From: Nitrososphaerota archaeon
GTDB taxonomy: Archaea; Thermoproteota; Nitrososphaeria_A; Caldarchaeales; Wolframiiraptoraceae
DNA length: 53,407 bases
Direction of reading: 5' to 3'
Assembly: GCA_021159365.1 (NCBI GenBank)
Contig: JAGGRY010000011.1
Coordinates: forward strand, 1-53,407
Shown here: piece by piece, positions 6,119 through 27,678 of the stretch
Layout of the letters: every line of letters starts with the position of its first letter
Numbering within the stretch: position 1 is the first letter of the stretch
Notes under the pieces: generated by a model
The model's input: only the letters and a program-made list of their open reading frames with translations
Told to the model about the DNA's origin: nothing
Databases searched by the model: none
Position numbers and translations under genes: made by a program

Positions 6119-6187
6119 CTAACTTGATGAATTAAGCCATGTAATTAACCTTACCAGTTGAGAGTTAATGATCTAGTATCGATCTGC

Positions 6188-6741: not shown

Positions 6742-7374
6742 TTAGATTACGTTGTCCCTACTTACTTGGCTTCTTTCATCGGTCTTTAAGGGTTCTGGGA
6801 GTTCTGGGAATTGATTACTCATCCTTTGGGCGGCTATCTCCGAGGCTTCTTCGAGAATTCTTCTTGCCTCGCTGTCCGCGACCATCACGGAGACCGTTGC
6901 GCCGGTCACATTTCCTGCCTCGACCATGATTCCCTCAAGCATTTCATCCACCATTCTCAAGTTATGCGCGACTTCTGGAACTAGTCCGCTTAGATCTGAT
7001 TGAATTCTCCTAATTATCTTGGTGGCCGGTGCGAGGACGTTCATGACATCTCCGAAGTCTCTTATCGTCTCCAGCCTCAAGATCACTTTCTCAAGCGATA
7101 TCTGGCTCTTCAAGATCGTTCTAGACATCTTTCTTAATTGAGCTATCTCATTTGCGTAGATCGTCGCCCTGTCTCTATCTAGTTCCTGCTCAGCTCTAAC
7201 GCATGCTTCAAAGAGTTCTTTATCCCTCGCTAGGAGTCTATGATAAGTCCTCTTTAGCTTCTCCGCTTGAACCTTTAGATGGGTTAAGATATCCATGATC
7301 CTTGGGCTTATAACCCTGAATTCCCTCGGCCTTTCCTCAACCCTCCTTTCCTGCTTAAAGAATGGAAACCTCAT
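6742..7374 (-). CDS. ESCRT-III / Snf7 (CdvB-like) family coiled-coil protein
   Basis: 210 aa, predicted all-helical. The core IYANEIAQLRKMSRTILKSQISLEKVILRLETIRDFGDVMNVLAPATKIIRRIQ...VDEMLEGI resembles the alpha1-alpha4 Snf7 core, with an acidic/Pro-rich tail. This is recognition by pattern only. Confidence 0.5.
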   Translation of the reverse strand: MRFPFFKQERRVEERPREFRVISPRIMDILTHLKVQAEKLKRTYHRLLARDKELFEACVRAEQELDRDRATIYANEIAQLRKMSRTILKSQISLEKVILRLETIRDFGDVMNVLAPATKIIRRIQSDLSGLVPEVAHNLRMVDEMLEGIMVEAGNVTGATVSVMVADSEARRILEEASEIAAQRMSNQFPELPEPLKTDERSQVSRDNVI

Positions 7375-7668
7375 CTCTTACTCAAACGCTCACTCACGGA
7401 CCTGTATTTATCGCTTCAAAGAATTTTGATGTCAAGTAAGACTTCTAGAATATTATGGGATGACTGCGGGATTTCAAGCTCTTCGAAGAGAAAGAAACTC
7501 TTCGGTTCATATGAGATCTAGATCCATGGAAAGAAATGCGATCTCTAAGCCTCTCCACTATAGCCATGGACAAGCTTTAGGTACGCTGTAGACGTGGCCT
7601 CTTGACTTGGTTATGCCTCGAAGAAGTTAAATCGCTGTCTTAACTTATTCCTTTGAGGCTGCTGGGCT

Positions 7669-8286
7669 TTGATGGAACCTTCGGCGATAGTCTTCGCGAA
7701 TATGGGGAAGTTTAGGGGGGTCTCGAAAGGGCTTTTCCCGATAGCCGGAAAACCTATGATAGAGTATGTTCTCGACTCGATACCAGATGAGGTCTCGGAT
7801 ATCTTGATCGCCGTCGAAGATGAAGAGAATGTCTCAGAGTATCAAGACTTGGCCGATCAATACTTAGCTAAAGTCGTCGTCTCCGGATCAAGGATCGGAA
7901 ACTTTAGGAAGGATCTAGAGTTCGCCGTAAACTCGATCAAGGGAGATAGATTTCTAGTTCTTCCATGCGATGCTCCACTGATAACCATGGAGTTCACGAA
8001 ATTTTTGGTCGATGCCTCTCAAAAGTTTCCAGCAGTTCTCCCAAGAACTCCATCTAGGAGAGTATCCTATCTAACGGCATCCTACCAGAAGAAACCTTTA
8101 GAGGAGGTCTTTAAATCGAGTCCAGATCTCGGAATGGAAGAAGTCATAAGAAAGCTCAAAGGCGCTGTATATCTCTCAAGCAATAGCTTAAAGATATTCG
8201 ATGAAAAATTGAACATGTTCTTCAGGGTGAGTTGTAAGGCTGATGTGGATAAGGCTGAAAGATTCTTGAGGAAGATGCTACGCTGA
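7669..8286 (+). CDS. MobA-like nucleotidyltransferase (NTP_transf_3-like), divergent
   Basis: The N-terminus AIVFANMGKFRGVSKGLFPIAGKPMIEYVLDSI resembles the MobA/GlmU-type NTP-binding loop but is degenerate, and LVLPCDAPLIT is present. Start is TTG 7669 or ATG 7672. Confidence 0.45.
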   Translation: MMEPSAIVFANMGKFRGVSKGLFPIAGKPMIEYVLDSIPDEVSDILIAVEDEENVSEYQDLADQYLAKVVVSGSRIGNFRKDLEFAVNSIKGDRFLVLPCDAPLITMEFTKFLVDASQKFPAVLPRTPSRRVSYLTASYQKKPLEEVFKSSPDLGMEEVIRKLKGAVYLSSNSLKIFDEKLNMFFRVSCKADVDKAERFLRKMLR

Positions 8287-8300
8287 ATGTTGAGAGCTGG

Positions 8301-9311
8301 ATGAGATTAAAGCTTGGAAAGCTTGAAAGAAAGCTGCTCGAAGAGATAATCTTCAAGAAGTTGGGCGAGAAGAGGAGAGATGTCATAGTTAAGCCGAGAT
8401 TTGGAGAAGATGCTTCAGTGATCAAGACTTGGTCTGGAGACATGGTCGTCGCCGCCATGGATCCGATAACAGGTTCAGGATCTATGCTTGGATGGCTTGC
8501 CGTGAATGTGAATGCCAATGATGTCGCGGTTATGGGAGGTGAGCCTAGATGGTTTTCGACGACCCTTTTACTTCCCGAAAACGCGGAGGTTGAGGAGATT
8601 AAGAGGATCACGTCGGAGATTCATCTCGCCGCCAAGAAGCTCGGAGTCGCGGTCATCACGGGCCACAGCGAGATAACTCCTGGGATAATGAATCCGATAA
8701 TTGTTGGCCATATGCTTGGTAAACTCGTCTCGAAGAAGCCTATAAGATCCTCTGATGCGAGGGCTGGAGATTTGATAATTATGGTGAAGACTGCTGGAAT
8801 TGAGGGAACCGCGATCCTCTCAACAGACTTCGCCGAAATTCTCAAGGATAAGGTTTCGGAAAAAATCCTAGAAAGAGCTAAGAGATTCTATCGAAGGATA
8901 AGCGTCGTTGAGGATGCTCTAAAACTCGCTAAAAGAAATATCTGTAGATCTATGCATGATCCTACTGAGGGAGGCGTTCTCGGAGGAGTATATGAGGTCG
9001 CGGAAGCGAGTAAGCTCTCCTTCATACTTTATGAGAATAAGATTCCAATCGCAGCTGAGACCAGGATCATTTGTAATGCATTAAATTGTGATCCACTGAG
9101 GTTGATAGCTTCTGGAGCCTTAATAGCCTCTATTCCCGAAGAGAATCTCAAGAAAGCGAAGAGAATCATTCCGAGCTTGAGAGTTATCGGTAGGTTTAGG
9201 CATAGAAGGATGGGAAATGTCTTGGTCAGAAGCGATGGATCCGAGGAGAAGATTAAAGATGAGATTAGGGATGAACTTTGGAGGCTCATAGAAGAGTTTA
9301 AGCTAAGGTAG
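8301..9311 (+). CDS. AIR synthase-related (PurM superfamily; HypE/ThiL/SelD-related) protein
   Basis: GEDASVI, AAMDPITG, NANDVAVMGGEP and GHSEITPG motifs are typical of PurM-fold ATP-utilising enzymes. There is no HypE C-terminal Cys motif. Confidence 0.65.
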   Translation: MRLKLGKLERKLLEEIIFKKLGEKRRDVIVKPRFGEDASVIKTWSGDMVVAAMDPITGSGSMLGWLAVNVNANDVAVMGGEPRWFSTTLLLPENAEVEEIKRITSEIHLAAKKLGVAVITGHSEITPGIMNPIIVGHMLGKLVSKKPIRSSDARAGDLIIMVKTAGIEGTAILSTDFAEILKDKVSEKILERAKRFYRRISVVEDALKLAKRNICRSMHDPTEGGVLGGVYEVAEASKLSFILYENKIPIAAETRIICNALNCDPLRLIASGALIASIPEENLKKAKRIIPSLRVIGRFRHRRMGNVLVRSDGSEEKIKDEIRDELWRLIEEFKLR

Positions 9312-9323
9312 TCGGCAACATCG

Positions 9324-9332
9324 TTATATATT
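9324..9332 (+). promoter_or_regulatory. TATA-like box upstream of guaB
   Basis: TTATATATT lies 28-36 nt upstream of the GTG start at 9360. Confidence 0.4.
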
Positions 9333-9359
9333 GGGAAAACTGCTCCATGAAGGGATTTC

Positions 9360-10817
9360 GTGGCGAAAATCTTGGATCAGATCGGGCTTTCCTTCGATGA
9401 TGCCCTTCTGATTCCGAGGAGATCTTCCATAAGATCTAGGAAAGAGGTTATAACTAGGAGTAGATTTACGAGAAGAATTTGGCTAAGCATCCCGATAGTC
9501 TCAGCCGCTATGGATACGGTCACGGAGTCTAGAATGGCCATAGCTATGGCGAGGGAAGGAGGAATAGGGGTGATCCATAGATTTATGCCGGCTGAGAGGC
9601 AGGCTGAAGAGGTTCTAAAGGTTAAGCGCGCTGAAAACATAGTGATCGAGGATCCTTACACGGTTAATCCAGAGATGAGGATTAAAGACGCTAGGAGGCT
9701 TATGGAGAAGTTTAGAGTTAGCGGACTGATCGTGGTCGACGAGGAGAGGAGGGTTCTCGGAATTCTAACGAGGAGAGATGTGGTCTTTGAAGACGATAAT
9801 AGATTGGTTAAGGATGCGATGACTCCCAGAAATGACATGATCGTCGCGAAGCCTGGGATAAGCATGGAGGAGGCCGAGGAGATCTTTAGAAAGTATAAGG
9901 TCGAGAAGCTTCCGATAGTCGATGAAGATAACAAGCTTAAGGGATTGATAACGAGCGTGGATTTAGTTAAACGCAAGATGTATCCAAATGCTTCAAGAGA
10001 CTCTAGGGGAAGGCTTTTAGCGGCAGCCGCGATAGGCGTCAGAGAGGAATCCATTCGAAGGTCAGAGCTCTTGGTTAAGGCTGGAGTGGATGTGATCGTG
10101 ATAGATGTCGCCCATGGCCACACCGAGATGGTGATAAACATGGTTAAGAGGCTTAGAAGAACTTATGGAGACGAATTGGAGATAGTTGCTGGAAACGTTG
10201 CGACCCCAGAAGGTGTGGAAGACCTCGTATCCGCCGGAGTCGACGCCGTTAAGGTTGGAATAGGCCCCGGATCCGTCTGCACCACCAGGATCGTCGCCGG
10301 TGTAGGTGTCCCCCAGCTCACGGCGATAATGATCTGCTCCGAGAAGGCTAGAGAACTCGATATACCGATAATCGCTGACGGTGGAATCAGGTATAGTGGC
10401 GATATAGTTAAGGCTTTGGCCGCTGGTGCTTCAACCGTCATGATAGGTAGGCTTCTAGCTGGAACCGATGAGAGTCCAGGAGCTATCGTCGTGAGAAATG
10501 GTAGAAAGTATAAGATTTATCGTGGAATGGCCTCGCTTTACGCCATGCTTGGAAGAGAAGTTAGGGAGACTGGAAATGAGGCTGAAGCTCTTCTAGACGC
10601 CTCAGAATACTCCTATTATGCTGAAGGCGTTGAGGCCTATGTTCCCTACACTGGTTCGGTTTCAGAAGTGATTAAACAACTTGTAGCTGGATTGAGATCT
10701 GGGATGAGCTATCTCGGAGCAAGAGATATCGATGAATTGAAGAGAAACGCTGTTTTCATAAGAATAACTGAGAGCGGGTTCAAGGAAAGCTTACCACATG
10801 ACGTTGAGAAGGTGTGA
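9360..10817 (+). CDS. guaB: Inosine-5'-monophosphate dehydrogenase with CBS pair
   Basis: Active-site loop [11 protein letters not shown], an internal CBS pair, GGIRYSGD; 485 aa. Confidence 0.9.
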
Positions 10818-10823
10818 AGAGAT

Positions 10824-12068
10824 ATGCCCGCGAAGGTGATTATAGGTCTTCAATGGGGAGATGAGGGTAAGGGAAAGATCTCATATCTCCTATCCCGCAA
10901 CGCCGACTGCGTAGTAAGATTTCAGGGAGGAGCAAACGCGGGCCACACCGTAGTTCTTCCAGACAGAAAATTGAAGTTCAATATGCTTCCAGCCGGATCA
11001 GCCGCCGGAGCGAAGCCATGTATAGCTTCAGGAGTTGTTCTGGATCCAGCTGAGGTAATTGAAGAGGTAGATCTACTTCGCTCAATAGGGATCGAGCCTG
11101 AATTGATGATTAGTGGCGCTGCTAATGTGGTCTTGAAGTTGCATAAGAGGCTTGATGGAATGATCGAAGAGCTTAGAGGAGGTAAGGCGGTTGGCACGAC
11201 TAGGAGAGGAATCGGGCCGACTTATTCCGATAAAGCGCTGAGAACTGGGATCAGGGTTGAAGATCTCCTAGACAAGAAAGCACTCCGAGAAAAACTTGAG
11301 ATCCTTGAAAGAGTTCATGGAATAAAGGTCGAGGAACTCGACGAACTCGTTAAGGTTGGAAGACTTATTGCAAAATATGTTGGAGACGTCGAGATCTATC
11401 TGAATGATCTCCTAGATTCTGGAGCCGAGGTGATCTTTGAGGGAGCTCAAGGAACCCTTCTAGACATAGATCACGGAACCTACCCCTATGTTACCTCATC
11501 GAATACTATTGCTGGAGCAGCATGCACGGGATGCGGAGTAGGACCTACTAGGATAGATGAAGTTATTGGCGTCATGAAGGCGTATTCAACGAGGGTTGGA
11601 GCAGGAGTGTTCCCAACGGAACTTCATGGAGAACTCGCCGATAGGATTAGGGAAATTGGAGGAGAGTATGGGACGACGACGGGTAGACCTAGGAGGGTTG
11701 GATGGCTGGATATACCATTATTGAGATACGCCGTTAAGATCAGCAATGTCTCGTGGATAGCGATGACCAAGCTCGACGTCTTAACGGGATTAAAGAAGCT
11801 TAAGATCTGTAAAGAATATGTTGTAGATGATGAAGTGGTTAAGATTGTTCATCCAAGCGTTAAAAAGCTTGAAAAAGTTAAGCCTAACTACGTCGAGGTC
11901 GATGGATGGGACATAGATCAAGGAGATTGGAGAAAGCTCGCTGAAAGGGGTTGGGAGTCATTTCCACCGGAAGCGAAGAACTATGTTGAATTGGTCGAGA
12001 GATTGCTCGGAGTCCCCGTCAAGCTCGTCTCAGTCGGACCTGAAGCTGGAATGGAGGTCTGGAGATGA
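10824..12068 (+). CDS. purA: Adenylosuccinate synthetase
   Basis: P-loop-like QWGDEGKGK, GTTRRGIGPTY and GTTTGRPRR motifs. Confidence 0.9.
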   Translation: MPAKVIIGLQWGDEGKGKISYLLSRNADCVVRFQGGANAGHTVVLPDRKLKFNMLPAGSAAGAKPCIASGVVLDPAEVIEEVDLLRSIGIEPELMISGAANVVLKLHKRLDGMIEELRGGKAVGTTRRGIGPTYSDKALRTGIRVEDLLDKKALREKLEILERVHGIKVEELDELVKVGRLIAKYVGDVEIYLNDLLDSGAEVIFEGAQGTLLDIDHGTYPYVTSSNTIAGAACTGCGVGPTRIDEVIGVMKAYSTRVGAGVFPTELHGELADRIREIGGEYGTTTGRPRRVGWLDIPLLRYAVKISNVSWIAMTKLDVLTGLKKLKICKEYVVDDEVVKIVHPSVKKLEKVKPNYVEVDGWDIDQGDWRKLAERGWESFPPEAKNYVELVERLLGVPVKLVSVGPEAGMEVWR

Positions 12069-13459
12069 ACTTCAATTCTCTAGAGGCCATAATCCCAATA
12101 GATGGCAGATATCGTGGAAGAATCGGCGAGACATCGAGATACTTCTCCGAATATGCTTTGATCAAGGAGAGGCTGAGGGTGGAGATAGAGTTCTTAATCA
12201 AAGTCATCGAGACTTGCAGCGAGGAGATCAGGTTTAAGCTTCCACATGATTGGAAGGATAGATTGTTGAGAATTGTTGAAGACTTTAAGCTAGAAGATGC
12301 TGAGAGAATTAAGGAGCTTGAGAAGATTTTAGGCCACGACGTCAAGGCCCTCATGAACTATCTCAGAGAGAGGCTTCATCAAATCGGATTAGAGCCGCTG
12401 TCATCATATATTCATCTTGGATTAACTTCAGATGACGTAAATAACTTGGCATATTCGCTCCTCCTCTCACGTTTTAGAGATGAAGTCCTCATACCGAATC
12501 TAATCGAGGTGATCAAGACAGTATCGGGGAAGGCTAGGGAAAATCTTGAAACGATCATGCTTGGTAGAACTCATGGAGTTCCAGCTGTTCCGACGACATT
12601 TGGAAGATTTCTCTCAAACTACGCATATAGGTTGGCTAGAATCGCTTATGAGCTGGCGTCGTTCAAGTTTCCTGGAAAGCTCGGCGGAGCCATTGGAGAT
12701 CACTCCGCCTTGAAGTTCACTTATCCTAAAGTTGATTGGATAGAGTTTAGCAAGGGTTTCGTAGAATCTCTTGGACTCGAATATACTCCAGCTTCAACCC
12801 AGATACTTCCACATGATAAGATCTCTGAATTCTTAGGCAAGATCTCGATCCTAGACGCTATCATATCGAATCTCTGTAGAGATCTCTGGCTCTTATCATC
12901 TCTCGGACTACTGGTCTTCGGGAGAAGAGTAGGCGAGGCGCATTCATCCACAATGCCTCACAAATCTAATCCACTACATCTCGAAAACGCTGAGGGAGCA
13001 TGCGACCTGGCTTCAAGCATAGCTTCATTCATGGCCCGTAGACTCATCTCAAGCAGACTTCATAGAGATCTCTCAGACTCCATTATCAAGAGATTCTATG
13101 GGCTTCCGTTGACCCTAACCATAATCGGGTTCAAGAGCTTGATGGAAGCTTTCAAGAGAATGAACGTTTTGAAGGATAAGATGAGGCTTGAAGTCGAGAG
13201 CCATCCCGAATCCTTGGCCGAAGCCTATCAAGTATATCTCAGAGCGCATGGAGTTGAAGATGCGTATGAACTCGTTCAGGGAGCTCTCGATAAAGGTTGG
13301 AGCGAGGTCTTAAAGGAGATCAAGGATAGGGGTCTTCCAGATGAGATCGTTAAGAGACTTAAAGAAGTCGAGCCTACTAAATATGTTGGAGAGGCTGTTA
13401 GAATCGGATCCATGCTTTTAGATGAGGTTGAGAAGATCTTAAGGAAGATCGGGAAATGA
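12065..13459 (+). CDS. purB: Adenylosuccinate lyase
   Basis: Fumarate-lyase signature SSTMPHKSNP; 464 aa; 4-nt overlap with purA. Confidence 0.9.
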   Translation: MNFNSLEAIIPIDGRYRGRIGETSRYFSEYALIKERLRVEIEFLIKVIETCSEEIRFKLPHDWKDRLLRIVEDFKLEDAERIKELEKILGHDVKALMNYLRERLHQIGLEPLSSYIHLGLTSDDVNNLAYSLLLSRFRDEVLIPNLIEVIKTVSGKARENLETIMLGRTHGVPAVPTTFGRFLSNYAYRLARIAYELASFKFPGKLGGAIGDHSALKFTYPKVDWIEFSKGFVESLGLEYTPASTQILPHDKISEFLGKISILDAIISNLCRDLWLLSSLGLLVFGRRVGEAHSSTMPHKSNPLHLENAEGACDLASSIASFMARRLISSRLHRDLSDSIIKRFYGLPLTLTIIGFKSLMEAFKRMNVLKDKMRLEVESHPESLAEAYQVYLRAHGVEDAYELVQGALDKGWSEVLKEIKDRGLPDEIVKRLKEVEPTKYVGEAVRIGSMLLDEVEKILRKIGK

Positions 13460-14353
13460 GTCTTCTCTCACACCTTTAGCCATAAGCTCACATCTCATGA
13501 CCTCAAACGATTTACCTAAATTCTCCATCAGTAGATTGATTTTCCCTTCTTCAGCAACGGCTATGACGCATCCACCTCCACCGGCTCCAGTGAGCTTCGC
13601 TCCAAAAGCCCCAGACTTCATACATAATTCGATCACATCTTCTATCTCCTTCGAAGATACCCCGACCCTTCTCAGAAGCTCCTGATTTCTCAGCATAAGT
13701 TTTCCGATAGATTCCACGTCTCTAGCTCTCAGCGCATCCACCGCTTCCCAGATTATCTGCTCAGCGTCTTCCAAGATCTTCTCGAACTCTTCCCCATGAG
13801 CATCCTTGAATTCCTTAACCTTCTTGACCAAATCTCCAGTTCTCCTAGCCTTTCCGGTATTGATTATTAAGATCTCATCTAGATTGAAATCCATGCTTCT
13901 AAATCCCTTGGAACGCGTATAGATTCCCCCGCCGCCATAGGTCGCGATCGTGGTATCGATTCCAGAGGGTCTATAATGAACTAAGCTTTCACCTATGTGA
14001 GCCGCCCTCATGATCAATTCTAGATCAAGTTCTCCCTTCAGCAGCAGAGATGTGGCCGCCGCGGACGCCACCGAGACGGAAGCCGATGAACCAAGACCTA
14101 CACTTTGAGGTATAGATGACCAGATCCTGAGATTTATTCCACCAGAGTATTCGAGTTCCTCGGCTATGTAGGCTGAAGCCCTAATGGCAGGATTCTCCCC
14201 AGTCCAGCCGTCGAGAATTATTCCCCGATCTGATCTCTCTACTTCTGCATAAGCTCTCAAACCGATGGCTGAGACGATGGCGGGCTTATCATAGACGACG
14301 AAATGCTCTCCAAATAAGATGACTTTACCTGGCGCAGAGGCGCATGCCTTCAT
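13439..14353 (-). CDS. mvk: Mevalonate kinase (GHMP kinase)
   Basis: PGKVILFGEHFVVY N-terminus, GHMP motif GLGSSASVSVA and C-terminal KLTGAGGGGC. Start taken at ATG 14353 (MKACASAPGK); the longer ORF begins at 14377. The 3' end overlaps purB convergently. Confidence 0.8.
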   Translation of the reverse strand: MKACASAPGKVILFGEHFVVYDKPAIVSAIGLRAYAEVERSDRGIILDGWTGENPAIRASAYIAEELEYSGGINLRIWSSIPQSVGLGSSASVSVASAAATSLLLKGELDLELIMRAAHIGESLVHYRPSGIDTTIATYGGGGIYTRSKGFRSMDFNLDEILIINTGKARRTGDLVKKVKEFKDAHGEEFEKILEDAEQIIWEAVDALRARDVESIGKLMLRNQELLRRVGVSSKEIEDVIELCMKSGAFGAKLTGAGGGGCVIAVAEEGKINLLMENLGKSFEVMRCELMAKGVREDSFPDLP

Positions 14354-14437
14354 CGTTAACCTTTTATGACCTAACATTTATTTATCTTAATCTCGATTCA
14401 TGGCCGCTCGCTAAGTCATCAAGATGTCAAATACTCT

Positions 14438-15046
14438 CTACTCAACTCTCTTTAAGCCTGAGAGTCTCAATAATCCTTCATGCAGCTCAAACCATATGTT
14501 ATGATATGATTGAACATCGACGCCGGATAGGTATTCGATTTCTCCACGCATCACGAGATTCAGCGCCCTATTAAGCCTCGTAATATACGTCTTCAATATT
14601 GGAAGCACTTTAGAGAGTTTTTCAAGAACATCTACTGTTTTCCTGTGAAGTTCGCCTAACTCTCTGATTATCGCTAAATCGTATTCTGGATCACTGTGAT
14701 CATTTGGAACGAGCATTCCTCCCTCATTCTTCACCTGCCATCTCGTGACGAGATCCTTGAACCACGTATTCAGCTCCTCAAACTCCTTACAATATGAAAG
14801 AACTTCCTCTCTTCTACCTGAACTCTCCAACACTTCTCGTCTAAGCCTCTTCATCTCCTCTCGTCCAGCATGCTCTATCTGCCATTGATCATCAACTCTT
14901 CTCACAAATCCCTTTCTCAGCAAATCATTTAAAACTTCACGAATTTTCTCTTTATCGATCTCTATGTTATTTTCGATATCTTTCTGGAGAGAGGATCTAA
15001 ATATATCGAGATAATTTAGGATGAGAAATTCATCCCAATTAACCAC
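14438..15046 (-). CDS. Putative winged-helix transcriptional regulator with helical C-terminal domain
   Basis: The N-terminal segment IREVLNDLLRKGFVRRVDDQWQI looks like a wHTH recognition helix plus wing. The gene is divergent from the PTS EI-like gene. No family was identified with confidence. Confidence 0.4.
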   Translation of the reverse strand: MVNWDEFLILNYLDIFRSSLQKDIENNIEIDKEKIREVLNDLLRKGFVRRVDDQWQIEHAGREEMKRLRREVLESSGRREEVLSYCKEFEELNTWFKDLVTRWQVKNEGGMLVPNDHSDPEYDLAIIRELGELHRKTVDVLEKLSKVLPILKTYITRLNRALNLVMRGEIEYLSGVDVQSYHNIWFELHEGLLRLSGLKRVE

Positions 15047-15150
15047 ATCGTTGACCTCCGACCTGGCATCTTGCTCAGCTTAATTTAAACCTTCAACAAA
15101 ATGCGAAAACTATTCTTCCAAGGAACAAAAATTCATATACATGTCGACTT

Positions 15151-15897
15151 ATGGTTGATGGTGGAATGCTGAAGCTAAAGGGTTTACCGGCTTCTCCTGG
15201 AATAGCTATAGGGAAAGCATTTGTATATGGTGGTCATGAAGAGTTTGACGTCGCGAATTTTTCAGGAGACGCGGATGCGGAAGTTTCCAAGTTCAAAAAG
15301 GCGTTAGAGGAGACTAAGTCGCAGGTGGCGAAGCTTAGGGATAAGGTTGAGAGGGAGATCGGGAAGGATGAAGCGGCGATCTTTGAGGCCCATCTAATGA
15401 TCTTAGAGGATCCTACATTCACCGATAAGGTCGTGAAATATATCAAGGAAGATCGCTTATCGGCTGAGAAGGCGGTTGAGAAGGCTTCAGAAGAACTCAT
15501 AGAGATGTTCAAGGCCATGGAGAGCGAATACTTTAGATCGAGGGCGGATGATATCAAAGATCTTCGGAATAGGATCATTAACAATCTCAGAGGAAGAAAG
15601 CAGTCGCTAAGCTTAGATCTCAAGGAGCCTTCAATAGTTTTCGCCAAAGAACTTCTCCCTTCAGATACTGCTAGGATGGATAAGAAGAAGGTGCTCGCCT
15701 TTGTGACCGAGATCGGGGGAATCACCTCGCATGCGGCGATAGTGGCAAGAGCTCTAAGGGTTCCAGCGGTAGTGAGCGTGAGCGGCTTGATGAAAAACGT
15801 GAGAGATGGTGTTACGGCGATCGTGGATGGATATAAGGGCTTGGTTATAATAGATCCTGTTGAAGAAGTTCTACGAGAATATTCGCAGAGAAAATAG
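15151..15897 (+). CDS. PTS Enzyme I N-terminal half only (HPr-binding domain plus phosphohistidine swivel domain); lacks the PEP-binding domain
   Basis: LKGLPASPGIAIGKAFVY, EAAIFEAHLMILEDP and the swivel-His motif GGITSHAAIVARALRVPAVV match roughly residues 1-250 of bacterial PtsI. The ORF stops at 248 aa. An alternative start is ATG 15166. Confidence 0.8.
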   Translation: MVDGGMLKLKGLPASPGIAIGKAFVYGGHEEFDVANFSGDADAEVSKFKKALEETKSQVAKLRDKVEREIGKDEAAIFEAHLMILEDPTFTDKVVKYIKEDRLSAEKAVEKASEELIEMFKAMESEYFRSRADDIKDLRNRIINNLRGRKQSLSLDLKEPSIVFAKELLPSDTARMDKKKVLAFVTEIGGITSHAAIVARALRVPAVVSVSGLMKNVRDGVTAIVDGYKGLVIIDPVEEVLREYSQRK

Positions 15898-15905
15898 TTC
15901 CAAAA

Positions 15906-16181
15906 CTATTCCTTCTCTCCAAATTTATTCTTGATGAGAGTCAGTAGGGTGTTTAAGGCTTCCTCGGCATCCTCGCCTTCTGCGATTATCGTTATCTCGT
16001 CACCGCATTCTGCTCCAAGCGATAAAACTCCAAGAATGCTCTTGGCATCCGCGATCTTATCGTCTTTCTTAACCTTGAGTTTAGCTTTAAACTTCTTAGC
16101 TGTCTGAACGAATACCGCCGCTGGCCTGGCATGTAAACCAACCTTGTTCGTTAATACGGCGCTTGCTTGTAGAATCTTCAT
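15906..16181 (-). CDS. ptsH: Phosphocarrier protein HPr
   Basis: 91 aa. Active-site His in NKVGLHARPA and a Ser46-like region DAKSILGVLSLG. Confidence 0.85.
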   Translation of the reverse strand: MKILQASAVLTNKVGLHARPAAVFVQTAKKFKAKLKVKKDDKIADAKSILGVLSLGAECGDEITIIAEGEDAEEALNTLLTLIKNKFGEKE

Positions 16182-16380
16182 CGTCGTTCACTCTTCGATT
16201 TCCCGTATTTAGATTTTTTTACCTTTTTACTTTTCGACGCATCCACGATTAATTTACTAAAGTTTAGGAGCCGGCCTCAATTCCATCGATGGAGATCCTC
16301 AGATTCAAAGTGAGTGGTAAGCAAATTATTCTGTTTTACCACCTTTTATCGAGATTTCACACATGTTTAAAGTTTGGCGT

Positions 16381-16401
16381 TTTAAAAACAACGTTTTTAA
16401 A
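16381..16401. promoter_or_regulatory. Perfect 9-bp inverted repeat (TTTAAAAAC-N3-GTTTTTAAA) in the divergent HPr/EIIC intergenic region
   Basis: Read directly from the sequence. It lies about 63-83 nt upstream of the EIIC ATG (16464), which is preceded by AGGAGGAGGA. It may be an operator or paired TATA-like elements. Confidence 0.4.
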
Positions 16402-16463
16402 GAAAGACTTATCTATGCGCACGATGTAATAAGTTACGTCAATTTGAGATAGGAGGAGGAAAA

Positions 16464-17849
16464 ATGGGTTGGATTGAAGTTTTATCGGCAGCTGTTCAGG
16501 GATTCTTGAATCTCGGAGCTTCTGTCGCCATCCCGATAATCTTGTTCTTCATAGCTCTTGGATTTAGAGTTAAGCCTGGTAGAGCTGCTAGATCAGCTAT
16601 AACGATCGCCGTGGGTTTCGTCGGCATCTTCCTATTGATAGGATTCTTCATGGATACGATAGCTCCCGTTGCCAAGATGCTCGTTGAGAGAACTGGAATC
16701 CAGCTAGTGGCGATAGACGTTGGGTGGCCTTCAGCCGCCGCGATCGCCTTCGGCTCGGTCTTGGGAACTTTGATAATCCCTGTAACCGTTGTCGTGAATC
16801 TAATCTTACTAGCCGCCAGGGTGACTAGAACCTTAGACATTGATGTCTGGAATTACTGGCACTTCGCATTCGTCGCGAGCCTGACATACATAGCGACTGG
16901 AGACTTCTGGCTTGGATTATTAGCCGGGATAGCGATGTTCGTAATCATTTTGCCGATCGCCGACTGGTCCGCTCCAAAGGTCCAAGAGATGCTCGAAACT
17001 CCTGCCATCTCTCTACCGCACGGATTCTCGGCTGTATATTTCGCGTTAGCGTATCCGGTGATGAAGCTGTTTCAGAAGATCCCCGGGCTCTGGAACATCA
17101 AGGCTGATCCGGAGACTATTAGGAAGAAATTTGGATTAATCGGTGAAAGCCCGGTTCTTGGAGCGATAATAGGGTTCGCCCTATCTGTTGCCGCTGGGGC
17201 CGACTATGTCACGGTCGCTAAGACCACGGTTGGCATGGCTGCTGTAATGGTGATCCTACCTAGAATGGTCAGGATCCTAATGGAGGGATTAGTTCCCTTA
17301 GCAGACGCAATTAGAGAGACGTTCGTCAAGAGATATGCCGGAAAGAGGGAACTATACATTGGATTGGATTCCGCGATCGCCATAGGACATCCCGTAGCCA
17401 TAGCAGCTTCCTTGATCCTCATACCGATATTCATCGTAGAATCCCTAATACCTGGAAACAAGATATTGCTTCTTGCAGACCTCCCAGTCATACCATTCAT
17501 GGTATGTATGACCGTTCCGTTATTCAATTACGACACCGTTAAGGTCATAATAAACATGGCTATCTGGAATATCGTCGGCCTACTCTTGGGAAGCATGATC
17601 ATAGACGTCTACACGGCCACCGCGAAATCCGTCGGATTCCCATTACCGAAAGGAGCCGTCTTCATCTCAAGCATATGCGATGGAACTAATCCGTTGACTT
17701 GGTTGCTCATCCAGCTCGGCAGGATAGGTTGGAGACCACTCGCCTATGGAGCCCTAATAGTGGTGATCATAGTATTCATAGTAATAGGTTACATTGCCGA
17801 GAAAAGGAGAGCGGAGAGAGCAGCTGAGGCCGCCGCTTCAACCGGTTAA
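16464..17849 (+). CDS. PTS EIIC permease, galactitol (Gat) family
   Basis: 461-aa polytopic membrane protein. The N-terminal region and motifs (VAIDVGWPSAAAIAFGS, LDIDVWNYWHF, ISLPHGFSA, GESPVLG, MVILPRMVRILMEGLVPLA, LIGLDSAIAIGHP) parallel E. coli GatC as I recall it. Confidence 0.8.
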   Translation: MGWIEVLSAAVQGFLNLGASVAIPIILFFIALGFRVKPGRAARSAITIAVGFVGIFLLIGFFMDTIAPVAKMLVERTGIQLVAIDVGWPSAAAIAFGSVLGTLIIPVTVVVNLILLAARVTRTLDIDVWNYWHFAFVASLTYIATGDFWLGLLAGIAMFVIILPIADWSAPKVQEMLETPAISLPHGFSAVYFALAYPVMKLFQKIPGLWNIKADPETIRKKFGLIGESPVLGAIIGFALSVAAGADYVTVAKTTVGMAAVMVILPRMVRILMEGLVPLADAIRETFVKRYAGKRELYIGLDSAIAIGHPVAIAASLILIPIFIVESLIPGNKILLLADLPVIPFMVCMTVPLFNYDTVKVIINMAIWNIVGLLLGSMIIDVYTATAKSVGFPLPKGAVFISSICDGTNPLTWLLIQLGRIGWRPLAYGALIVVIIVFIVIGYIAEKRRAERAAEAAASTG

Positions 17850-17886
17850 AAGTTAAAGCTTCCCAAAACCCTCTTTATTTTCAGAG

Positions 17887-18195
17887 GTGATAGATTTGGG
17901 AAATGATATTAAGAAGGTCATCGTGAGCTGTGGAACGGCTATAGCTACCGCGACGTATGTCGCCAGTAAGGTAAAGGAGATCGCCGAGGAGAATGGGATT
18001 AAGGTTGAGATAACTCAATGTAAAGCGGCTGAAGTTAATTACTACATATCTATGTTGGGGAAAGTCGATCTAATAGTCACGACCACTCCTGTAAACGTTC
18101 AGGGAATACCCGTGGTCAATGGTGTGCCATTTCTAAGCGGAGTCGGAGTGGAGCAAGTTAAGAAGAAGATAGTCGACATTTTGAAGAAGAGCTGA
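17887..18195 (+). CDS. PTS EIIB component (Gat/lactose-type, Cys phosphorylation site)
   Basis: 102 aa. KKVIVSCGTAIATATYVA carries the N-terminal active-site Cys, as in GatB. Start is GTG 17887 or TTG 17896. Confidence 0.75.
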   Translation: MIDLGNDIKKVIVSCGTAIATATYVASKVKEIAEENGIKVEITQCKAAEVNYYISMLGKVDLIVTTTPVNVQGIPVVNGVPFLSGVGVEQVKKKIVDILKKS

Positions 18196-18196
18196 G

Positions 18197-18688
18197 GTGA
18201 AGGCTACGAAGGTCTATTACACCTTCATCGACTGCGATGATAGCATAGAGACCCTTAAAAGAGTAAGTGAATATCTTTACAATAAAGGCCTTGTAAAGGA
18301 GACATACGTTGAATCTCTGTTAAAGAGGGAGAAAGAATTTCCAACAGGTCTTCAAAGCGAGAAAGGAGTCGGAGTCGCAATACCTCACGCCGACATTGAG
18401 CACGTCTTAGAGGAGGCTTTCGTCGCGATATTTCCAACAAAGACCTTACATTTCCATAAGATGGATGAACCTGATAAGGAGATCCCCGTCGATCTGGTTC
18501 TCTTATTAGTCGTTAAATCTACTCAAGGCTATATGAAATTCCTATCAGATCTGGCCTCAACTATAAATGATGAAAAATTCGCCGAGCTTGTGGAGAGCAG
18601 AAAGACGGAAGAGATAATAGATTTCCTAGTCAAGAACATTCTAGAGAAACATTTCAAGGTGGAGCAAGTCGAGAGAGTAAAACTCTGA
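18197..18688 (+). CDS. PTS EIIA component (PTS_EIIA_2, mannitol/fructose/galactitol type)
   Basis: 163 aa. Phosphorylatable His in GVGVAIPHADIEH. The GTG start is 1 nt after the EIIB stop. Confidence 0.75.
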   Translation: MKATKVYYTFIDCDDSIETLKRVSEYLYNKGLVKETYVESLLKREKEFPTGLQSEKGVGVAIPHADIEHVLEEAFVAIFPTKTLHFHKMDEPDKEIPVDLVLLLVVKSTQGYMKFLSDLASTINDEKFAELVESRKTEEIIDFLVKNILEKHFKVEQVERVKL

Positions 18689-18768
18689 GAGAAATGAAAC
18701 ATAACTCGGATTTGGATGTCAATTCGTGATTAGCTTAGAGATCATTCCGTGAATCTAGGGCCGCGGTT

Positions 18769-19494
18769 TTATGGTCTCTCATGCCTCTTTTTGCTCTCAA
18801 GAATTAATGGATGAACTATTTGATGGATGTATTCGACAAACTCAGATTCAGGCATCTTTGTGAATGCAGTTACGACGCAGTTTCTAGTTAATCCCATGAC
18901 CTTATTCGTTCCAGTGACCGTGAACACGATATACCATATGTTTCCATGGCTTAGATACTCCTCATACAGTCCGGAATCCTTTAGAGATTCTCCATAGAGG
19001 GCTAATTTATCAACAGCTGGAAAATCTAGGTTGTCGAAGTATATCACCTTCGTCGCCTCGGGATTTCTTTCATGAAATTCCCTCATGACTTCTGGAGATA
19101 TTCTAGCCTCGGTTAAAGCCTTGTATGAGAGATAGAGGTGATGGGAGAGAATCGATGCGACGGCGTTTGCGAAATGCTTTTCTTGCACGACCGTTAGTAG
19201 GATCAGGTCTTCGAGTTTCCTGAAGATTATTCTAGCCTCAGTTGTCTTCAGGATTGGAACCTTTCTCCCTCTCTGGTTTATCAGAATTATCTTATCCTTG
19301 CTGAAGGTTCCCTCAAGCATGTCATCCTTCAGATCCAAGTCTTTCACCTCGGTCATGAGCTCAAAGTCCATCCCTTCCTCGCTCCGCTCGTCAACGACCC
19401 TATAGCCTCTAAGCTTATCCGCTATCTCTTCTAAGCTTGTATCGACCCTTATCTCGAAGATCTTCGCCGCGAGGGGCATCTCGATCCCTTTCAC
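18769..19494 (-). CDS. Hypothetical protein (no family recognised)
   Basis: 241-aa ORF with balanced composition, lying 27 nt downstream of the GNAT gene on the same strand. Confidence 0.5.
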   Translation of the reverse strand: MKGIEMPLAAKIFEIRVDTSLEEIADKLRGYRVVDERSEEGMDFELMTEVKDLDLKDDMLEGTFSKDKIILINQRGRKVPILKTTEARIIFRKLEDLILLTVVQEKHFANAVASILSHHLYLSYKALTEARISPEVMREFHERNPEATKVIYFDNLDFPAVDKLALYGESLKDSGLYEEYLSHGNIWYIVFTVTGTNKVMGLTRNCVVTAFTKMPESEFVEYIHQIVHPLILESKKRHERP

Positions 19495-19521: not shown

Positions 19522-20034
19522 TTAGGATCTCTGGCTGAGCTTCTTCACAGCTCTATAGGCATCTCTTCCAGCTCCATAATAGTTCTCCAGTTTTTCGATG
19601 AATTCATAGCCCATGTTTCTATAGAGGTTTATTGCCGGCTGATTATCCACCGCGACTTCAAGGATTATCTCTTCACATCCCTCTCTCTTGAAGGAGTCTT
19701 CGATGACGTTCATCAAGAGCCTTCCAATGCCTCTTCCCCTAAGCTCAGGTCTAACGTTTATCGTATAGATCCTTCCAACTCTTCTCTTCCCAGATCTCTC
19801 AACTCTTCCCACGACGAATCCTAGAATGACATGATCTCTAACCGCTTTGAGGAAGATCGTCCTCTCATCTTTAAGCAGCCACCTATAGATCCACTTACTA
19901 TACGATTCTCTTCCAAAGCATTTGACCTCAATCTCATAGATCTCATCCAAGTCCTCCATCGCCGCCTTCTCGATCCTCACCTTAGCCTCCATATGCTTCC
20001 AAAGAGAGTATCTATCGGCTATCCTTATATTCAT
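19522..20034 (-). CDS. GNAT family N-acetyltransferase (RimI/Ard1-like)
   Basis: Acetyl-CoA binding motif RGRGIGRLLM, EIILEVAVDNQPAINLYRNMGY and YYGAGRDAY. An alternative start is ATG 19992 (MEAKVRIEKA). Confidence 0.75.
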   Translation of the reverse strand: MNIRIADRYSLWKHMEAKVRIEKAAMEDLDEIYEIEVKCFGRESYSKWIYRWLLKDERTIFLKAVRDHVILGFVVGRVERSGKRRVGRIYTINVRPELRGRGIGRLLMNVIEDSFKREGCEEIILEVAVDNQPAINLYRNMGYEFIEKLENYYGAGRDAYRAVKKLSQRS

Positions 20035-20064: not shown

Positions 20065-20838
20065 TTGAAGGAACTCGCAGTCGTTAAGCTCGGAGGCTCT
20101 ATCATAACCGTTAAGGATAAGCCGTTTACTCTTAGGGGAAAGGTTCTCGAGAGGATTGGATCCGAGCTTTCAGGTCTGGAAGAGTCTTTGATCCTCGTTC
20201 ATGGGGGTGGATCATACGCTCATCCAGTTGCGAAGAAGTATTCAGTCTCGGAGGGTTATAGAGATGAAGAGCACTTGAGGGGGTTTATGGAGACCTCGAT
20301 CGCGGTTCGGAGATTAAACCTCGAAGTCGTTGAGAAACTTATTGAAGGCGGATTAAGATGTATAGGCATACCATCCTCAACAATATTCTCCACAAGTTCT
20401 GGAAGAATCCTCACATGCAGTCTTGAGCCCATATTCTTATCCCATAGAGTTAAGATTGCTCCAGTCACATGTGGAGATGTTGTATTCGACCGCGAGCTAG
20501 GTTTCACCGTTTTGTCGGGAGATGCTATTGCATCATATCTTGCGGTCAGGCTCAGGGCTAAGAGATTGATTTATGCAATAGATCTAGATGGAATCTATGT
20601 TAAAGATAGGGTTACAGGAGAGGTGAAGGTCGCTGAAGAGCTTAAACCTGGTATGAGGCTTGAACCTCTCGGAAAGATCAAGGAAGATGTCACCGGAGGA
20701 GTTATGGGAAAACTTGAAGAAGGATTTAGGGCGGCTGAGAACGGCGTCGAGGTCATGATAGTCAATGGATTAGCTGAAGGTAGGATAAGGGATGCTGTTT
20801 TAGGTAAGAGCGTTCTTGGAACAATTCTTAAAGTTTAG
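20065..20838 (+). CDS. Isopentenyl phosphate kinase (amino-acid kinase family)
   Basis: VVKLGGSIITVKDKPF and LVHGGGSYAHP motifs. The track ORF begins at 19831 but its first 78 codons run antisense through the GNAT gene; TTG 20065 is the first plausible start after it. Confidence 0.75.
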   Translation: MKELAVVKLGGSIITVKDKPFTLRGKVLERIGSELSGLEESLILVHGGGSYAHPVAKKYSVSEGYRDEEHLRGFMETSIAVRRLNLEVVEKLIEGGLRCIGIPSSTIFSTSSGRILTCSLEPIFLSHRVKIAPVTCGDVVFDRELGFTVLSGDAIASYLAVRLRAKRLIYAIDLDGIYVKDRVTGEVKVAEELKPGMRLEPLGKIKEDVTGGVMGKLEEGFRAAENGVEVMIVNGLAEGRIRDAVLGKSVLGTILKV

Positions 20839-27144: not shown

Positions 27145-27678
27145 ATGATGTTGAGGGTTGGTAGATCTATAGTTGAGCTCGTTAAGGGAGATATAACGGA
27201 GCTTGAAGTGGATGCGATAGTCAACGCCGCGAACTCTAGGCTTAAGATGGGCGGTGGAGTTGCTGGAGCTATCTTAAGGAAAGGGGGCTGGAGCATTCAA
27301 GAAGAATGCGATAAGATTGGATACTGTCCGGTTGGTGGAGCGGTGATAACTGGAGCGGGAAAATTGAAGGCGAAATACGTTATCCACGCGGTTGGCCCTA
27401 GGATGGGTGAAGGCGATGAGGATAGAAAGCTTAGAAACGCCACCCTAAACTCCCTTAAGCTCGCGGAGAAGCATGGGATTAAAAGCATGGCCTTCCCAGC
27501 GATCTCGACCGGGATCTTCGGATTCCCAAAGGATAGATGTGCGAAGATAATGTTGAGAACCACAGTTGATTATCTTAAGGCTGGAAGCAGCATCGAGAGA
27601 GTCATCTTCTGCCTTTACGACGATGAAACTTATCAGATATTCGCCGAGGAACTTAACAGGATCAAGAATGAGGTTTAG
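27145..27678 (+). CDS. Macro domain protein (ADP-ribose / O-acetyl-ADP-ribose binding or hydrolysing, Af1521-like)
   Basis: VKGDITELEVDAIVNAANSRLKMGGGVAGAI and AFPAISTGIFGFP motifs. The start is probably one of the tandem ATGs at 27145/27148 rather than 27100. Confidence 0.8.
   Translation: MMLRVGRSIVELVKGDITELEVDAIVNAANSRLKMGGGVAGAILRKGGWSIQEECDKIGYCPVGGAVITGAGKLKAKYVIHAVGPRMGEGDEDRKLRNATLNSLKLAEKHGIKSMAFPAISTGIFGFPKDRCAKIMLRTTVDYLKAGSSIERVIFCLYDDETYQIFAEELNRIKNEV

Follow-up and report, generated by a model that had tools for sequence, protein, structure and literature searches.

In Escherichia coli, the Gat (GatA/GatB/GatC) and uncharacterised Sgc (SgcA/B/C) systems are charged by full-length Enzyme I (EI) with PEP. 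The E. coli EIN laboratory fragment corresponds to residues 1-249/259 of EI. DhaM, the phosphoryl donor subunit of the E. coli dihydroxyacetone kinase, contains an EIN-like module that is purely a phospho-carrier, and DhaM is charged by the full-length EI and HPr of the cell. In the archaea, the EI of the haloarchaeal PTS is also full-length. Haloarcula marismortui pNG700 carries a fructose-class PTS cluster encoding EI and HPr, and the haloarchaeal clusters have been read as being of bacterial origin (PMC2405797). The roles of the individual EI domains have been described (PMC13598208). In Mycobacterium tuberculosis, a truncated PPDK, VadK (Rv1127c), uses ATP and Mg to autophosphorylate its catalytic His, and its operonic partner co-purifies with it (PMC13400623).

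This work describes PTS1, a six-gene accessory island at positions 14438-18688 of the window (the whole 53,407-nucleotide stretch of DNA that was analysed), from a hydrothermal-vent archaeon of the Wolframiiraptoraceae, Caldarchaeales. Like the haloarchaeal clusters it is an archaeal PTS gene cluster, but it is of the GAT class rather than the fructose class, encodes only the EIN part of EI and belongs to a thermophilic lineage. The island consists of the genes for p202, EIN, HPr, IIC, IIB and IIA (Table 1). The original prediction extended the block to 19494; all of the PTS genes that it named are present, with scores well beyond chance, but the stretch beyond the end of the EIIA gene at 18688 contains p241, a core gene. 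Conversely, the 202-amino-acid ORF at the other end had been left out of the PTS gene list and is a member of the island. The block is flanked by mevalonate kinase (MVK) and isopentenyl phosphate kinase (IPK), as had been proposed. The EIN and HPr genes converge, with 8 bp between their stop codons, and neither of the two divergent intergenic regions gave an Rfam match. Promoters or an operator are presumed to lie in the one between p202 and EIN; the one between HPr and EIIC is AT-rich with repeated TTTAAAG-type motifs, and position 16215 carries a 9-bp indel in some strains.

Table 1. Features of the PTS1 island and its core neighbours in the window.
Feature	Coordinates	Strand	Basis
MVK, flank	13439-14377		
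p202, candidate regulator, first island gene	14438..15046	-	weak TrmB/MarR matches; profile vs PDB
p202-EIN divergent intergenic region	15047..15150	.	sequence inspection
EIN-only Enzyme I	15151..15897	+	PF05524 and PF00391 only
HPr phosphocarrier	15906..16181	-	PF00381, TIGR01003
HPr-EIIC divergent intergenic region	16182..16463	.	sequence inspection
EIIC permease, GAT (galactitol/Sgc) family	16464..17849	+	PF03611
EIIB	17887..18195	+	PF02302
EIIA (EIIA_2 / mannitol-fructose-galactitol type), last island gene	18197..18688	+	PF00359
p241, 241-aa ORF, conserved core gene outside the PTS	18769-19494		
RimI, conserved core gene outside the PTS	19522-20034		
IPK, flank	about 20080-20838		

The EI-like protein has 248 amino acids and is composed of the HPr-binding alpha subdomain, matched by PF05524 over residues 10-131 (E=1.3e-35), and the phospho-His swivel subdomain, matched by PF00391 (E=9.8e-24). 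His194 in its TSH motif is invariant in 19 homologues and aligns with the catalytic His of solved EI structures. The GGITSHAAIV motif listed for the EI-like protein is thus correctly placed, but the protein is only the N-terminal half of EI. It covers positions 1-241 of the 565 of TIGR01417 (PtsI), scores 224.9 bits where the cut-off is 341.7, and has no match to PF02896, the PEP-binding and dimerisation TIM barrel (EIC). A tblastn search with the EIC part of a full-length EI gave no matches, either in the window or across 20 archaeal loci. The 19 homologues, of 241-250 amino acids, likewise contain PF05524 and PF00391 only, share a common end point and all keep the catalytic His; within this small archaeal EIN-only family the members are 47-98% identical. 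The truncation is a conserved archaeal feature rather than damage, and the island EIN would be unable to charge itself from PEP. Because the island's EI has no PEP-binding domain, the relay lacks its canonical entry point, and the complete bacterial-style phosphorelay that had been proposed is not supported, although its phosphorylation sites are all intact.

A protein of the same domain content and almost the same end point has been made in the laboratory: residues 9-248 of the window EIN align with residues 2-243 of the 248-residue chain of the EIN fragment 5WOY (E=9e-58). However, such fragments are engineered pieces of the 575-residue E. coli enzyme, whereas the island EIN is a natural, conserved product. 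DhaM is a natural parallel, in that its EIN-like module also has no domain for binding PEP; its model is matched by the window EIN in the C-terminal region (positions 256-470 of 473, 138 bits). In DhaM this module forms part of a fusion with IIA-Man-like and HPr-like domains, whereas the island EIN is a separate protein and there is no sign of a full-length EI to serve it.

HPr matches PF00381 (E=1.2e-31) and exceeds the TIGR01003 cut-off of 47.9 with 96.2 bits, contains the His15-type motif GLHARPA and a Ser46-type KSILGV motif, and is 98% identical in amino acid sequence to the HPr of the related locus L012. EIIC (PF03611 EIIC-GAT, 230 bits, E=6.7e-68), EIIB (PF02302, 38.1 bits, E=2.5e-9) and EIIA (PF00359, 86.6 bits, E=2.1e-24) all exceed the Pfam cut-offs and form an Enzyme II of the GAT family (TC 4.A.5). 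The active-site Cys of EIIB (VSCGTAIAT) aligns with that of E. coli GatB (IVACGGAV, PDB 1TVM), and the His of EIIA (AIPHAD) aligns with the GVAIPH His of the IIA structure 1XIZ and its derived scaffolds. Thus, the four phosphorylation motifs listed in the original prediction are all present in the translations, and those of EIIB, EIIA and EIN kept their assignment after alignment with solved structures. The island shares with the E. coli Gat and Sgc systems the Enzyme II family, the split into separate IIC, IIB and IIA proteins and the conserved IIB Cys and IIA His, but its EII proteins are only 29-41% identical to theirs. The "Gat-family" label holds at the level of the family; it does not extend to the galactitol equivalogs, since EIIC scored 394 bits with TIGR00827 (cut-off 542), EIIB 85.5 bits with the GatB model NF007643 (cut-off 95) and EIIA 85 bits with the galactitol equivalog (cut-off 139), and EIIC is equidistant from E. 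coli SgcC (35%) and GatC (34%). A galactitol-specific PTS is not supported by these scores, and no gatD, gatY or gatZ is adjacent. Nor does the window have an operon of the E. coli sgcXBCQAER type, since the companions SgcE, SgcQ and SgcX are absent from it. As originally noted, PTS1 has no sugar-phosphate catabolic gene alongside it.

Two species of one Wolframiiraptoraceae genus have the island between p241 and MVK: the six-gene block of the window recurs at this site in L012/L033, which are about 83% identical to the window in nucleotide sequence. The block is precisely absent from L013, a strain with 95% identity to L012, and from eight more distant relatives in the family. In six of these (L014, L016, L018, L019, L022, and L027) p241 and MVK are both on the contig, and in L020 and L021 the contigs read on past p241. 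The junctions are intergenic, the flanks are conserved, and neither an integrase nor repeats were seen at the junctions. This pattern supports insertion of the island between p241 and MVK in the ancestor of the genus, followed by loss in one sister strain, and agrees with the earlier suggestion of an insertion or rearrangement. The remark that MVK and IPK are usually adjacent in archaea holds approximately: they are directly so in L014 and L027, while RimI and p241 intervene in the other relatives. The comparison of composition that had been proposed showed no difference between the island (GC 0.456, GC3 0.503) and the background (0.461 and 0.503), and its codon-usage distance was within that of the background.

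These results also bear on the first reading of the block as an ordinary, complete bacterial-type PEP:sugar PTS recently acquired from bacteria. The EII proteins are indeed of a bacterial family and the phospho-sites of the carriers are all intact, but the architecture of EIN contradicts this reading. Furthermore, EIN, HPr, and p202 have their nearest relatives in other archaeal cassettes (47-98% identity), while bacterial EI does not exceed about 48%; the composition is native, and the divergence of the island from L012 equals that of the flanks. We therefore consider recent bacterial acquisition of a complete system to be extremely improbable.

All six island genes are under purifying selection similar to that of the flanking genes. 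Between the two species, for which dS was 0.6-1.0, dN/dS ranged from 0.017 to 0.125 (p202, 0.11; EIN, 0.125; HPr, 0.017; EIIC, 0.053; EIIB, 0.064; EIIA, 0.055). The genes contain no frameshifts or internal stops, metatranscriptome contigs of 95-99% identity touch each of the six, and the architecture is identical across independent assemblies. In four vent metagenomes the depth over the island equals that over the flanks; within its species it has full population frequency. PTS1 differs from its sister cassettes in lacking a short PPDK, a second IIA and sgc-type enzymes, as would a functionless, decaying remnant of a larger PTS island. Nevertheless, the intact reading frames, the constraint on every gene, the constant architecture and the transcripts leave such decay hardly credible.

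The sister cassettes suggest where the phosphate might come from. In five other lineages, EIN-only cassettes adjoin a truncated PPDK with an ATP-binding and a His domain (L003-L007, L008, L009, L011, and L034), and one of these is a second island (PTS2, L034) in the genus of the window, whose flanks are 95% identical to L012. Every other EIN-only cassette inspected has a short PPDK adjacent to EIN, HPr, and a p202 paralogue. Speaking against a tie between the two, L031 has a short PPDK with no PTS at all. The short PPDK consists of the ATP-grasp nucleotide domain and the swivel His and has no PEP/pyruvate domain: it aligns with residues 5-530 of Clostridium symbiosum PPDK, keeps GGMTSHAAVVAR and has no C-terminal domain, and the archaeal form passes the truncated-PPDK model NF004531 (about 534 positions). 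The short PPDKs (529-552 amino acids) form their own clade, nearest to archaeal full-length PPDK; the full-length enzymes of Caldarchaeales and Nitrososphaerota (887-897 amino acids) are 56-63% identical to the short form. The architecture is the same as that of VadK, with an ATP-binding and a catalytic-His domain and no PEP/pyruvate domain, and the autophosphorylation of VadK is a biochemical precedent for charging of the catalytic His from ATP. However, because its nearest relative is the archaeal full-length PPDK, at 63% identity, the archaeal short form appears to have arisen independently. Moreover, VadK is tied to the methylcitrate cycle and the archaeal protein to PTS cassettes, and the window itself has no short PPDK. 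A search of the window for a donor of the PF01326 plus PF00391 type returned only the swivel domain of EIN itself, and there was no short PPDK in the 35.8-kb contig of L012 or next to PTS1 in any assembly. As a result, the donor is unobserved in the organism of the window.

Alternatively, the relay may still be PEP-dependent and charged in trans, if the EIN swivel docks on the PEP/pyruvate-binding barrel of a full-length housekeeping enzyme (PPDK or PEP synthase) or on a stand-alone, unlinked EIC-like protein, and if this partner takes over the role of the missing EIC. Full-length PPDKs exist in these lineages, as described above, and PTS1 in the window and L012 has no adjoining short PPDK. 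In addition, the archaeal EINs continue after the catalytic His as HAAI[IV]ARA, which resembles the HAAVVAR[GA] of PPDK; this favours the short PPDK as donor and would also suit docking on either PPDK catalytic domain; Ala at +1 of the catalytic His occurs in just 2 of 70 bacterial EI sequences. This likeness concerns three positions in one clade and could be lineage drift, and when the swivel domain is compared over its full length, identity to PPDK is no higher for archaeal EIN (0.29) than for bacterial EI (0.28). Against charging in trans, neither the window nor any of the related cassettes showed a PF02896-type sequence, the consistent partner of EIN-only cassettes is the form of PPDK that lost its PEP domain, and we know of no case in which the C-terminal domain of PPDK or PpsA complements EIN in trans. 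Such docking thus seems unlikely, although it deserves some weight.

The p202 protein is a candidate regulator. Its 202 residues give weak TrmB/MarR profile matches, and its profile matched MarR regulators in the PDB over positions 6-104 (E=1.6e-4), which points to a MarR/TrmB-type N-terminal winged helix. This is followed by a C-terminal helical domain with invariant NDHxDPxYD and SYHxxWFExHE motifs, which had no match in the PDB at E<=0.001; the AF2 model has a pLDDT of 92.4. Since p202 combines a wHTH with a domain that has His, Asp, and Glu among its invariant residues, the island might serve chiefly as a phosphorelay for regulation or sensing, or as a facilitator, and not for energised uptake. 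In this reading EIN, HPr, and IIA/IIB would exchange phosphate with p202 or other targets, and IIC would be a sensor or uniporter. In the relatives p202 constantly accompanies EIN or the short PPDK, even where Enzyme II is missing, as in L031, and the lack of a catabolic gene in PTS1 would fit such a role. Furthermore, VadK, the only truncated PPDK studied, has been described as a regulatory histidine kinase (PMC13400623). On the other hand, the complete IIC-IIB-IIA set, its conserved transfer Cys and His and the low dN/dS of IIC give it the look of a working transporter, and the sister cassettes L003-L011 hold sgc-type sugar-phosphate enzymes: an M42 protein (39% identical to SgcX), a BtpA protein (40% to SgcQ) and an RPE-like epimerase (25% to SgcE, a weaker likeness). 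A mainly regulatory role is accordingly improbable in our view.

Because the first enzyme of the relay lacks the PEP-binding half, the phosphate probably comes from a source other than PEP. We consider it an even proposition that PTS1, with its EIN-only EI, is charged by a separate phospho-histidine donor for which the short PPDK would be the best candidate; the support for such ATP-driven charging is comparative throughout. No PPDK-type enzyme is known to pass phosphate to EIN or HPr, and we know of no precedent for a transfer from one swivel domain to another or for the nucleotide domain of PPDK acting on a foreign swivel domain. In the organism of the window, the donor gene would be elsewhere in the genome, or another enzyme would take its place. 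The fuller, sgc-like relatives hint, by analogy, at a substrate of the pentose or ketose type. In the proposed ATP-driven, PEP-independent route, phosphate would pass from ATP (with Pi) to the short PPDK, then to His194 of EIN, the His of HPr, the His of IIA and the Cys of IIB, and finally to a sugar or polyol entering via IIC, with p202 regulating the divergent promoters.

The island between mevalonate kinase (MVK) and a 241-aa gene, p241, referred to here as PTS1, is by its sequence a selected archaeal GAT-family phosphotransferase system (PTS) whose Enzyme I naturally consists of EIN only, the half that binds HPr and carries the phospho-His swivel. ORF listing and profile searches, which provided the gene calls at this locus, confirmed all of the PTS genes that the original prediction had named. 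The phospho-site motifs that it had quoted are present and fall on the correct residues once aligned to solved structures, and therefore that observation stands: the EIIB Cys matches the corresponding Cys in the GatB structure 1TVM, the EIIA His matches the GVAIPH His of IIA structures, and the EI-like His falls within the TSH motif of EI structures. The genes rps2, enolase, rpoN, rps9 and rpl13 are located downstream of the isopentenyl phosphate kinase (IPK) gene. A scan of the 13-21 kb region with Rfam for a riboswitch or leader gave zero matches, and a 9-bp deletion polymorphism was found at position 16215, in the divergent intergenic region between HPr and EIIC, in two of four vent metagenomes.

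Features at the PTS1 locus and the second island of the genus, with dN/dS between the window and the sister species L012
Feature	Coordinates	Strand	Basis	dN/dS
Mevalonate kinase	13439-14377	-	ORF + profile	
p202, 202-aa ORF	14438-15046	-	ORF + profile	0.11
Enzyme I-like ORF (EIN)	15151-15897	+	ORF + profile	0.125
HPr	15906-16181	-	ORF + profile	0.017
EIIC, GAT family	16464-17849	+	ORF + profile	0.053
EIIB	17887-18195	+	ORF + profile	0.064
EIIA	18197-18688	+	ORF + profile	0.055
p241, 241 aa, no Pfam or NCBIfam match	18769-19494	-	ORF + profile	
RimI-type acetyltransferase	19522-20034	-	ORF + profile	
Isopentenyl phosphate kinase	~20080-20838	+	ORF + profile	
PTS2, second PTS island, same genus	L034 1460-12603			

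Use of PEP via Enzyme I is what defines a PTS. The relay had been described as complete and bacterial in style, which is not supported, for its Enzyme I lacks the PEP-binding half. The EI-like protein has 248 residues and contains only PF05524 (HPr-binding) and PF00391 (swivel phospho-His); its match to the PtsI model spans positions 1-241 of 565 and, at 224.9 bits, stays below the cut-off of 341.7, the PEP-binding domain that defines PtsI membership being absent. A tblastn search of the 53-kb window with EIC, the PEP-binding and dimerisation half of a full-length EI, gave no match, and the EIN stop codon lies 8 bp from that of the convergent HPr gene. Its nearest match by sequence among structures is 5WOY (a chain of 248 aa, matched over residues 2-243), and the natural archaeal protein has the same end point as laboratory EIN constructs (248-259 aa); it also resembles the EIN-like carrier module of DhaM. 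It has been reported that the catalytic His of EIN receives phosphate only upon docking to PEP-bound EIC (PMC13598208). Since EIC is missing, the relay is without its canonical entry point.

Searching 5.8 billion proteins yielded 19 EIN homologues of 241-250 aa (48-98% identity) with the same two domains only, and all EIN-only homologues keep the catalytic His and share an end point within a few residues. When the EIN-family profile was compared with 1.84 billion cluster representatives, the best-ranked entries were two truncated clusters and one fragment; next came a 574-aa full-length EI (51% identity), which is accompanied by a Lac-family PTS. A metagenome scan with the EIN alignment, whose patterns were general and which served as a length control, yielded 78 full-length EI loci from bacteria and only two archaeal loci. 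In the great majority of these 78 loci the reading frame extends approximately 330 residues past the EIN match, the exceptions being 11 in which the contig end comes first and two with an earlier stop. Judged by these comparisons, the EIN-only truncation is a conserved feature of the family.

Purifying selection acts on all six PTS1 genes between the window and L012. Their dN/dS values are within those seen for the housekeeping genes on either side (0.013-0.16), and dS is similar too. On these values and on repeated independent assemblies, the reading of the island as a pseudogene or remnant was rejected. Each of the six genes was also touched by marine-sediment metatranscriptome contigs at 95-99% identity and low depth, which is weak evidence of expression, as the depth of a contig reflects it poorly and DNA carry-over is possible.

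The original prediction also held that the island arrived by insertion, and the comparison with relatives supports this. An rps2 scan with one genome per species assigned the window to Wolframiiraptoraceae, a family of the Caldarchaeales: its rps2 is 97% identical to those of two MAGs of the same genus, L012 and L013, and 75-81% identical to those of Candidatus Wolframiiraptor sp., Candidatus Benthortus lauensis, and MAGs labelled Aigarchaeota or Nitrososphaeria. Runs that contain the window sequence are hydrothermal-vent and marine-sediment metagenomes. When window proteins were mapped onto the relatives' loci and the DNA was compared, the six-gene block from p202 to IIA was found between p241 and MVK in the window, L012 and L033 (same genus). 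In L013, which is 95% identical to L012 while either one is approximately 83-84% identical to the window, p241 and MVK are joined directly by a spacer of approximately 65 bp. The block is also absent from six other relatives whose contigs carry both p241 and MVK (L014, L016, L018, L019, L022 and L027), and in L020 and L021 no PTS gene occurs in contigs extending 5-6 kb beyond p241. Because p241 is 71-94% identical across the Wolframiiraptoraceae relatives that have it, with or without the block, it is a core gene outside the island; this conserved gene of unknown function lies beside or near MVK (2-3 kb off in L027), in a mevalonate-pathway neighbourhood. The simplest history would be that the ancestor of the genus gained the block once and that the L013 lineage then lost it cleanly. 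Both junctions fall between genes, and aligning them revealed no direct repeats or element scars. The compositional check proposed for the acquisition was uninformative, as the GC, GC3 and codon usage of the island are all native and gave no signal of foreign origin. In four vent metagenomes, in which the window species reaches 30-87x, island depth equals flank depth and no empty-site contigs for PTS1 were seen. One contig of the metatranscriptome run X24 departs from the window at 14356, just upstream of the MVK start, and resembles the PTS-less junction of L013 beyond this point, which suggests that PTS1-less relatives co-occur in the X24 sediment.

The label "Gat-family" holds for family membership, but not for a galactitol assignment, because IIC, IIB and IIA all score below the galactitol equivalog cut-offs; IIC shares 35% identity with SgcC and 34% with GatC. 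Contigs encoding other EIN-only family members revealed sister cassettes in four further lineages (L003-L007, L008, L009 and L011), all of which combine EIN and HPr with GAT-family IIC and IIB. The first three also contain an RPE-like epimerase, an M42 peptidase, a BtpA/SgcQ protein and a second IIA, and L011 has the same companions as far as its contig reaches. With M42 39% identical to SgcX and BtpA 40% identical to SgcQ, these fuller cassettes are, by sequence resemblance, of the sgc type. A tblastn search of the window found none of the sgc-type enzymes or PEP-hydrolase-like barrels.

Having a conserved and selected EIN-only Enzyme I raises the question of where the phosphate for His194 comes from, and the relatives offer a concrete candidate encoded beside EIN, a truncated pyruvate phosphate dikinase (short PPDK). 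In all four sister lineages a p202 homologue precedes a protein of 536-538 aa that carries PF01326 and PF00391 (its gene call is split in L008), and in three of the four a further IIA comes next. This protein aligns to residues 5-530 of Clostridium symbiosum PPDK (E=1e-152) and keeps GGMTSHAAVVAR, without the PEP/pyruvate barrel. Its clade spans 529-552 aa, and the nearest full-length proteins are archaeal PPDKs (63% identity). The same architecture is found in VadK, a truncated PPDK of M. tuberculosis whose catalytic His is autophosphorylated with ATP and Mg and which co-purifies with its operonic partner (PMC13400623). A short PPDK also occurs within the genus of the window. The contig L034 (Ga0190367_1001500) matches L012 at 95% identity across rps9 and rpl13, beyond which an island of approximately 11.1 kb, PTS2, is inserted. 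This island encodes EIN (56% identical to that of the window), HPr, IIB, IIC and IIA, a short PPDK of 546 aa and a paralogue of p202, alongside two TrpA-like proteins, a protein with a weak PALP-domain match and a 351-aa product of no family. PTS2 is polymorphic in vent populations, where both filled and empty sites (joining 1451 to 12642) were found, the empty-site contig at a depth of 5-33 versus 2-12 for the island.

From the cassette linkage, PTS2, the chemistry of VadK and the motif flanking the catalytic His, we infer that the short PPDK is a candidate phospho-donor of EIN-only relays. With respect to the motif, the archaeal EIN reads HAAI[IV]ARA and PPDK reads HAAVVAR[GA], whereas bacterial EI mostly reads H[TS]AIMA[RK]S, with Ala at +1 in two of 70 sequences. 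This likeness is limited to three positions after the His; convergence of the whole swivel on PPDK was rejected, since the archaeal EIN is overall no nearer to PPDK (identity 0.29) than bacterial EI is (0.28), which speaks against the short PPDK as donor. So does the occurrence of a short PPDK and p202 paralogues without any PTS, in the 111-kb archaeal contig L031 (6777-15191). There, its neighbours are three PEP-hydrolase-like (PF09370) barrels, two p202 paralogues and a 608-aa Rph_4th and PEP-utilizers protein with an Rph-like swivel, and the cluster may be a different split phosphotransfer system. Alternatively, a housekeeping PPDK or PpsA may charge EIN from PEP by way of its PEP domain, or the role of the island may be mainly regulatory. 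No short PPDK was found in the 53-kb window (tblastn), the 35.8-kb contig of L012 or any PTS1 assembly; a MAG look-up for a link between a short PPDK and the window species placed P0005, the closest EIN, and P0089, a short PPDK, in different assemblies; and the vent metagenomes contained PTS2 only at 92-97% identity, that is, in the sister species. The relatives' neighbourhoods, which are strong evidence, point to a truncated PPDK as the candidate source of phosphate.

In a relay charged by the short PPDK, this protein, lacking a PEP/pyruvate domain, would autophosphorylate from ATP (+Pi), and would then either charge the stand-alone EIN directly or lend it a nucleotide-binding domain, after which phosphate would pass to HPr and the GAT-family Enzyme II. 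The matching phospho- or metal-sensing regulator would be p202, with its domain of invariant His, Asp and Glu residues. We propose this PEP-independent PTS as a whole only tentatively, giving it rather less than an even chance. The N-terminal 60-100 residues of p202 form a MarR/TrmB-type winged helix, and no solved structure matched its C-terminal helical domain, modelled at pLDDT 92.4, at E<=0.001. NDHxDPxYD and SYHxxWFExHE are invariant in this C-terminal domain among archaeal and actinobacterial members, and p202 is a putative regulator of the island, possibly responsive to metal or phosphate groups. Bacterial p202 homologues beside VadK-like genes were sought and rejected; dapA and rnj adjoin the three that were inspected.

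Elsewhere in the window, the region 94-6118 begins with genes for 2-oxoacid dehydrogenase E1-alpha and E2, with an intervening ORF presumed to be E1-beta. Next come two Zn-dependent dehydrogenases of the polyol/threonine type, which score below all equivalog cut-offs, and a class II aldolase/epimerase (L-ribulose-5-P 4-epimerase/fuculose-P aldolase family). The dehydrogenases and aldolase may serve in sugar or polyol catabolism and lie 8-10 kb from the PTS. A PfkA-type ATP-dependent 6-phosphofructokinase, of a family uncommon in archaea, is encoded at 47778-48740 (+) (NF002872, 382 bits versus a cut-off of 253). Three consecutive genes at 28808-31708 (-), 8-15 kb from MVK and IPK, encode the swivel and large subunits of aconitase X and a UbiD-family protein, the archaeal modified mevalonate set of phosphomevalonate dehydratase and anhydromevalonate phosphate decarboxylase. 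At 51922-53391 there are two PIN-domain proteins with a small ORF ahead of each, probably toxin-antitoxin pairs of the VapBC type. A Snf7/ESCRT-III-like protein (6742-7374, -) and a PAC2-family proteasome assembly chaperone (27675-28547, -) are ordinary for this archaeal group.

The literature searched contained no paper on a PTS in Caldarchaeales or on an EIN-only Enzyme I in archaea, and at a minimum the island adds a PTS to this order and records its gain, duplication and loss there. If the proposed charging by the short PPDK is true, this would be the first ATP-energised PTS, and the swivel-His module would be exchangeable between the PPDK and EI families in nature. Group translocation would then be uncoupled from the PEP/pyruvate ratio, which is relevant to modified glycolysis, p202 would represent an added regulator family, and the recent finding that truncated PPDKs act as histidine kinases would extend to archaea and to transport.
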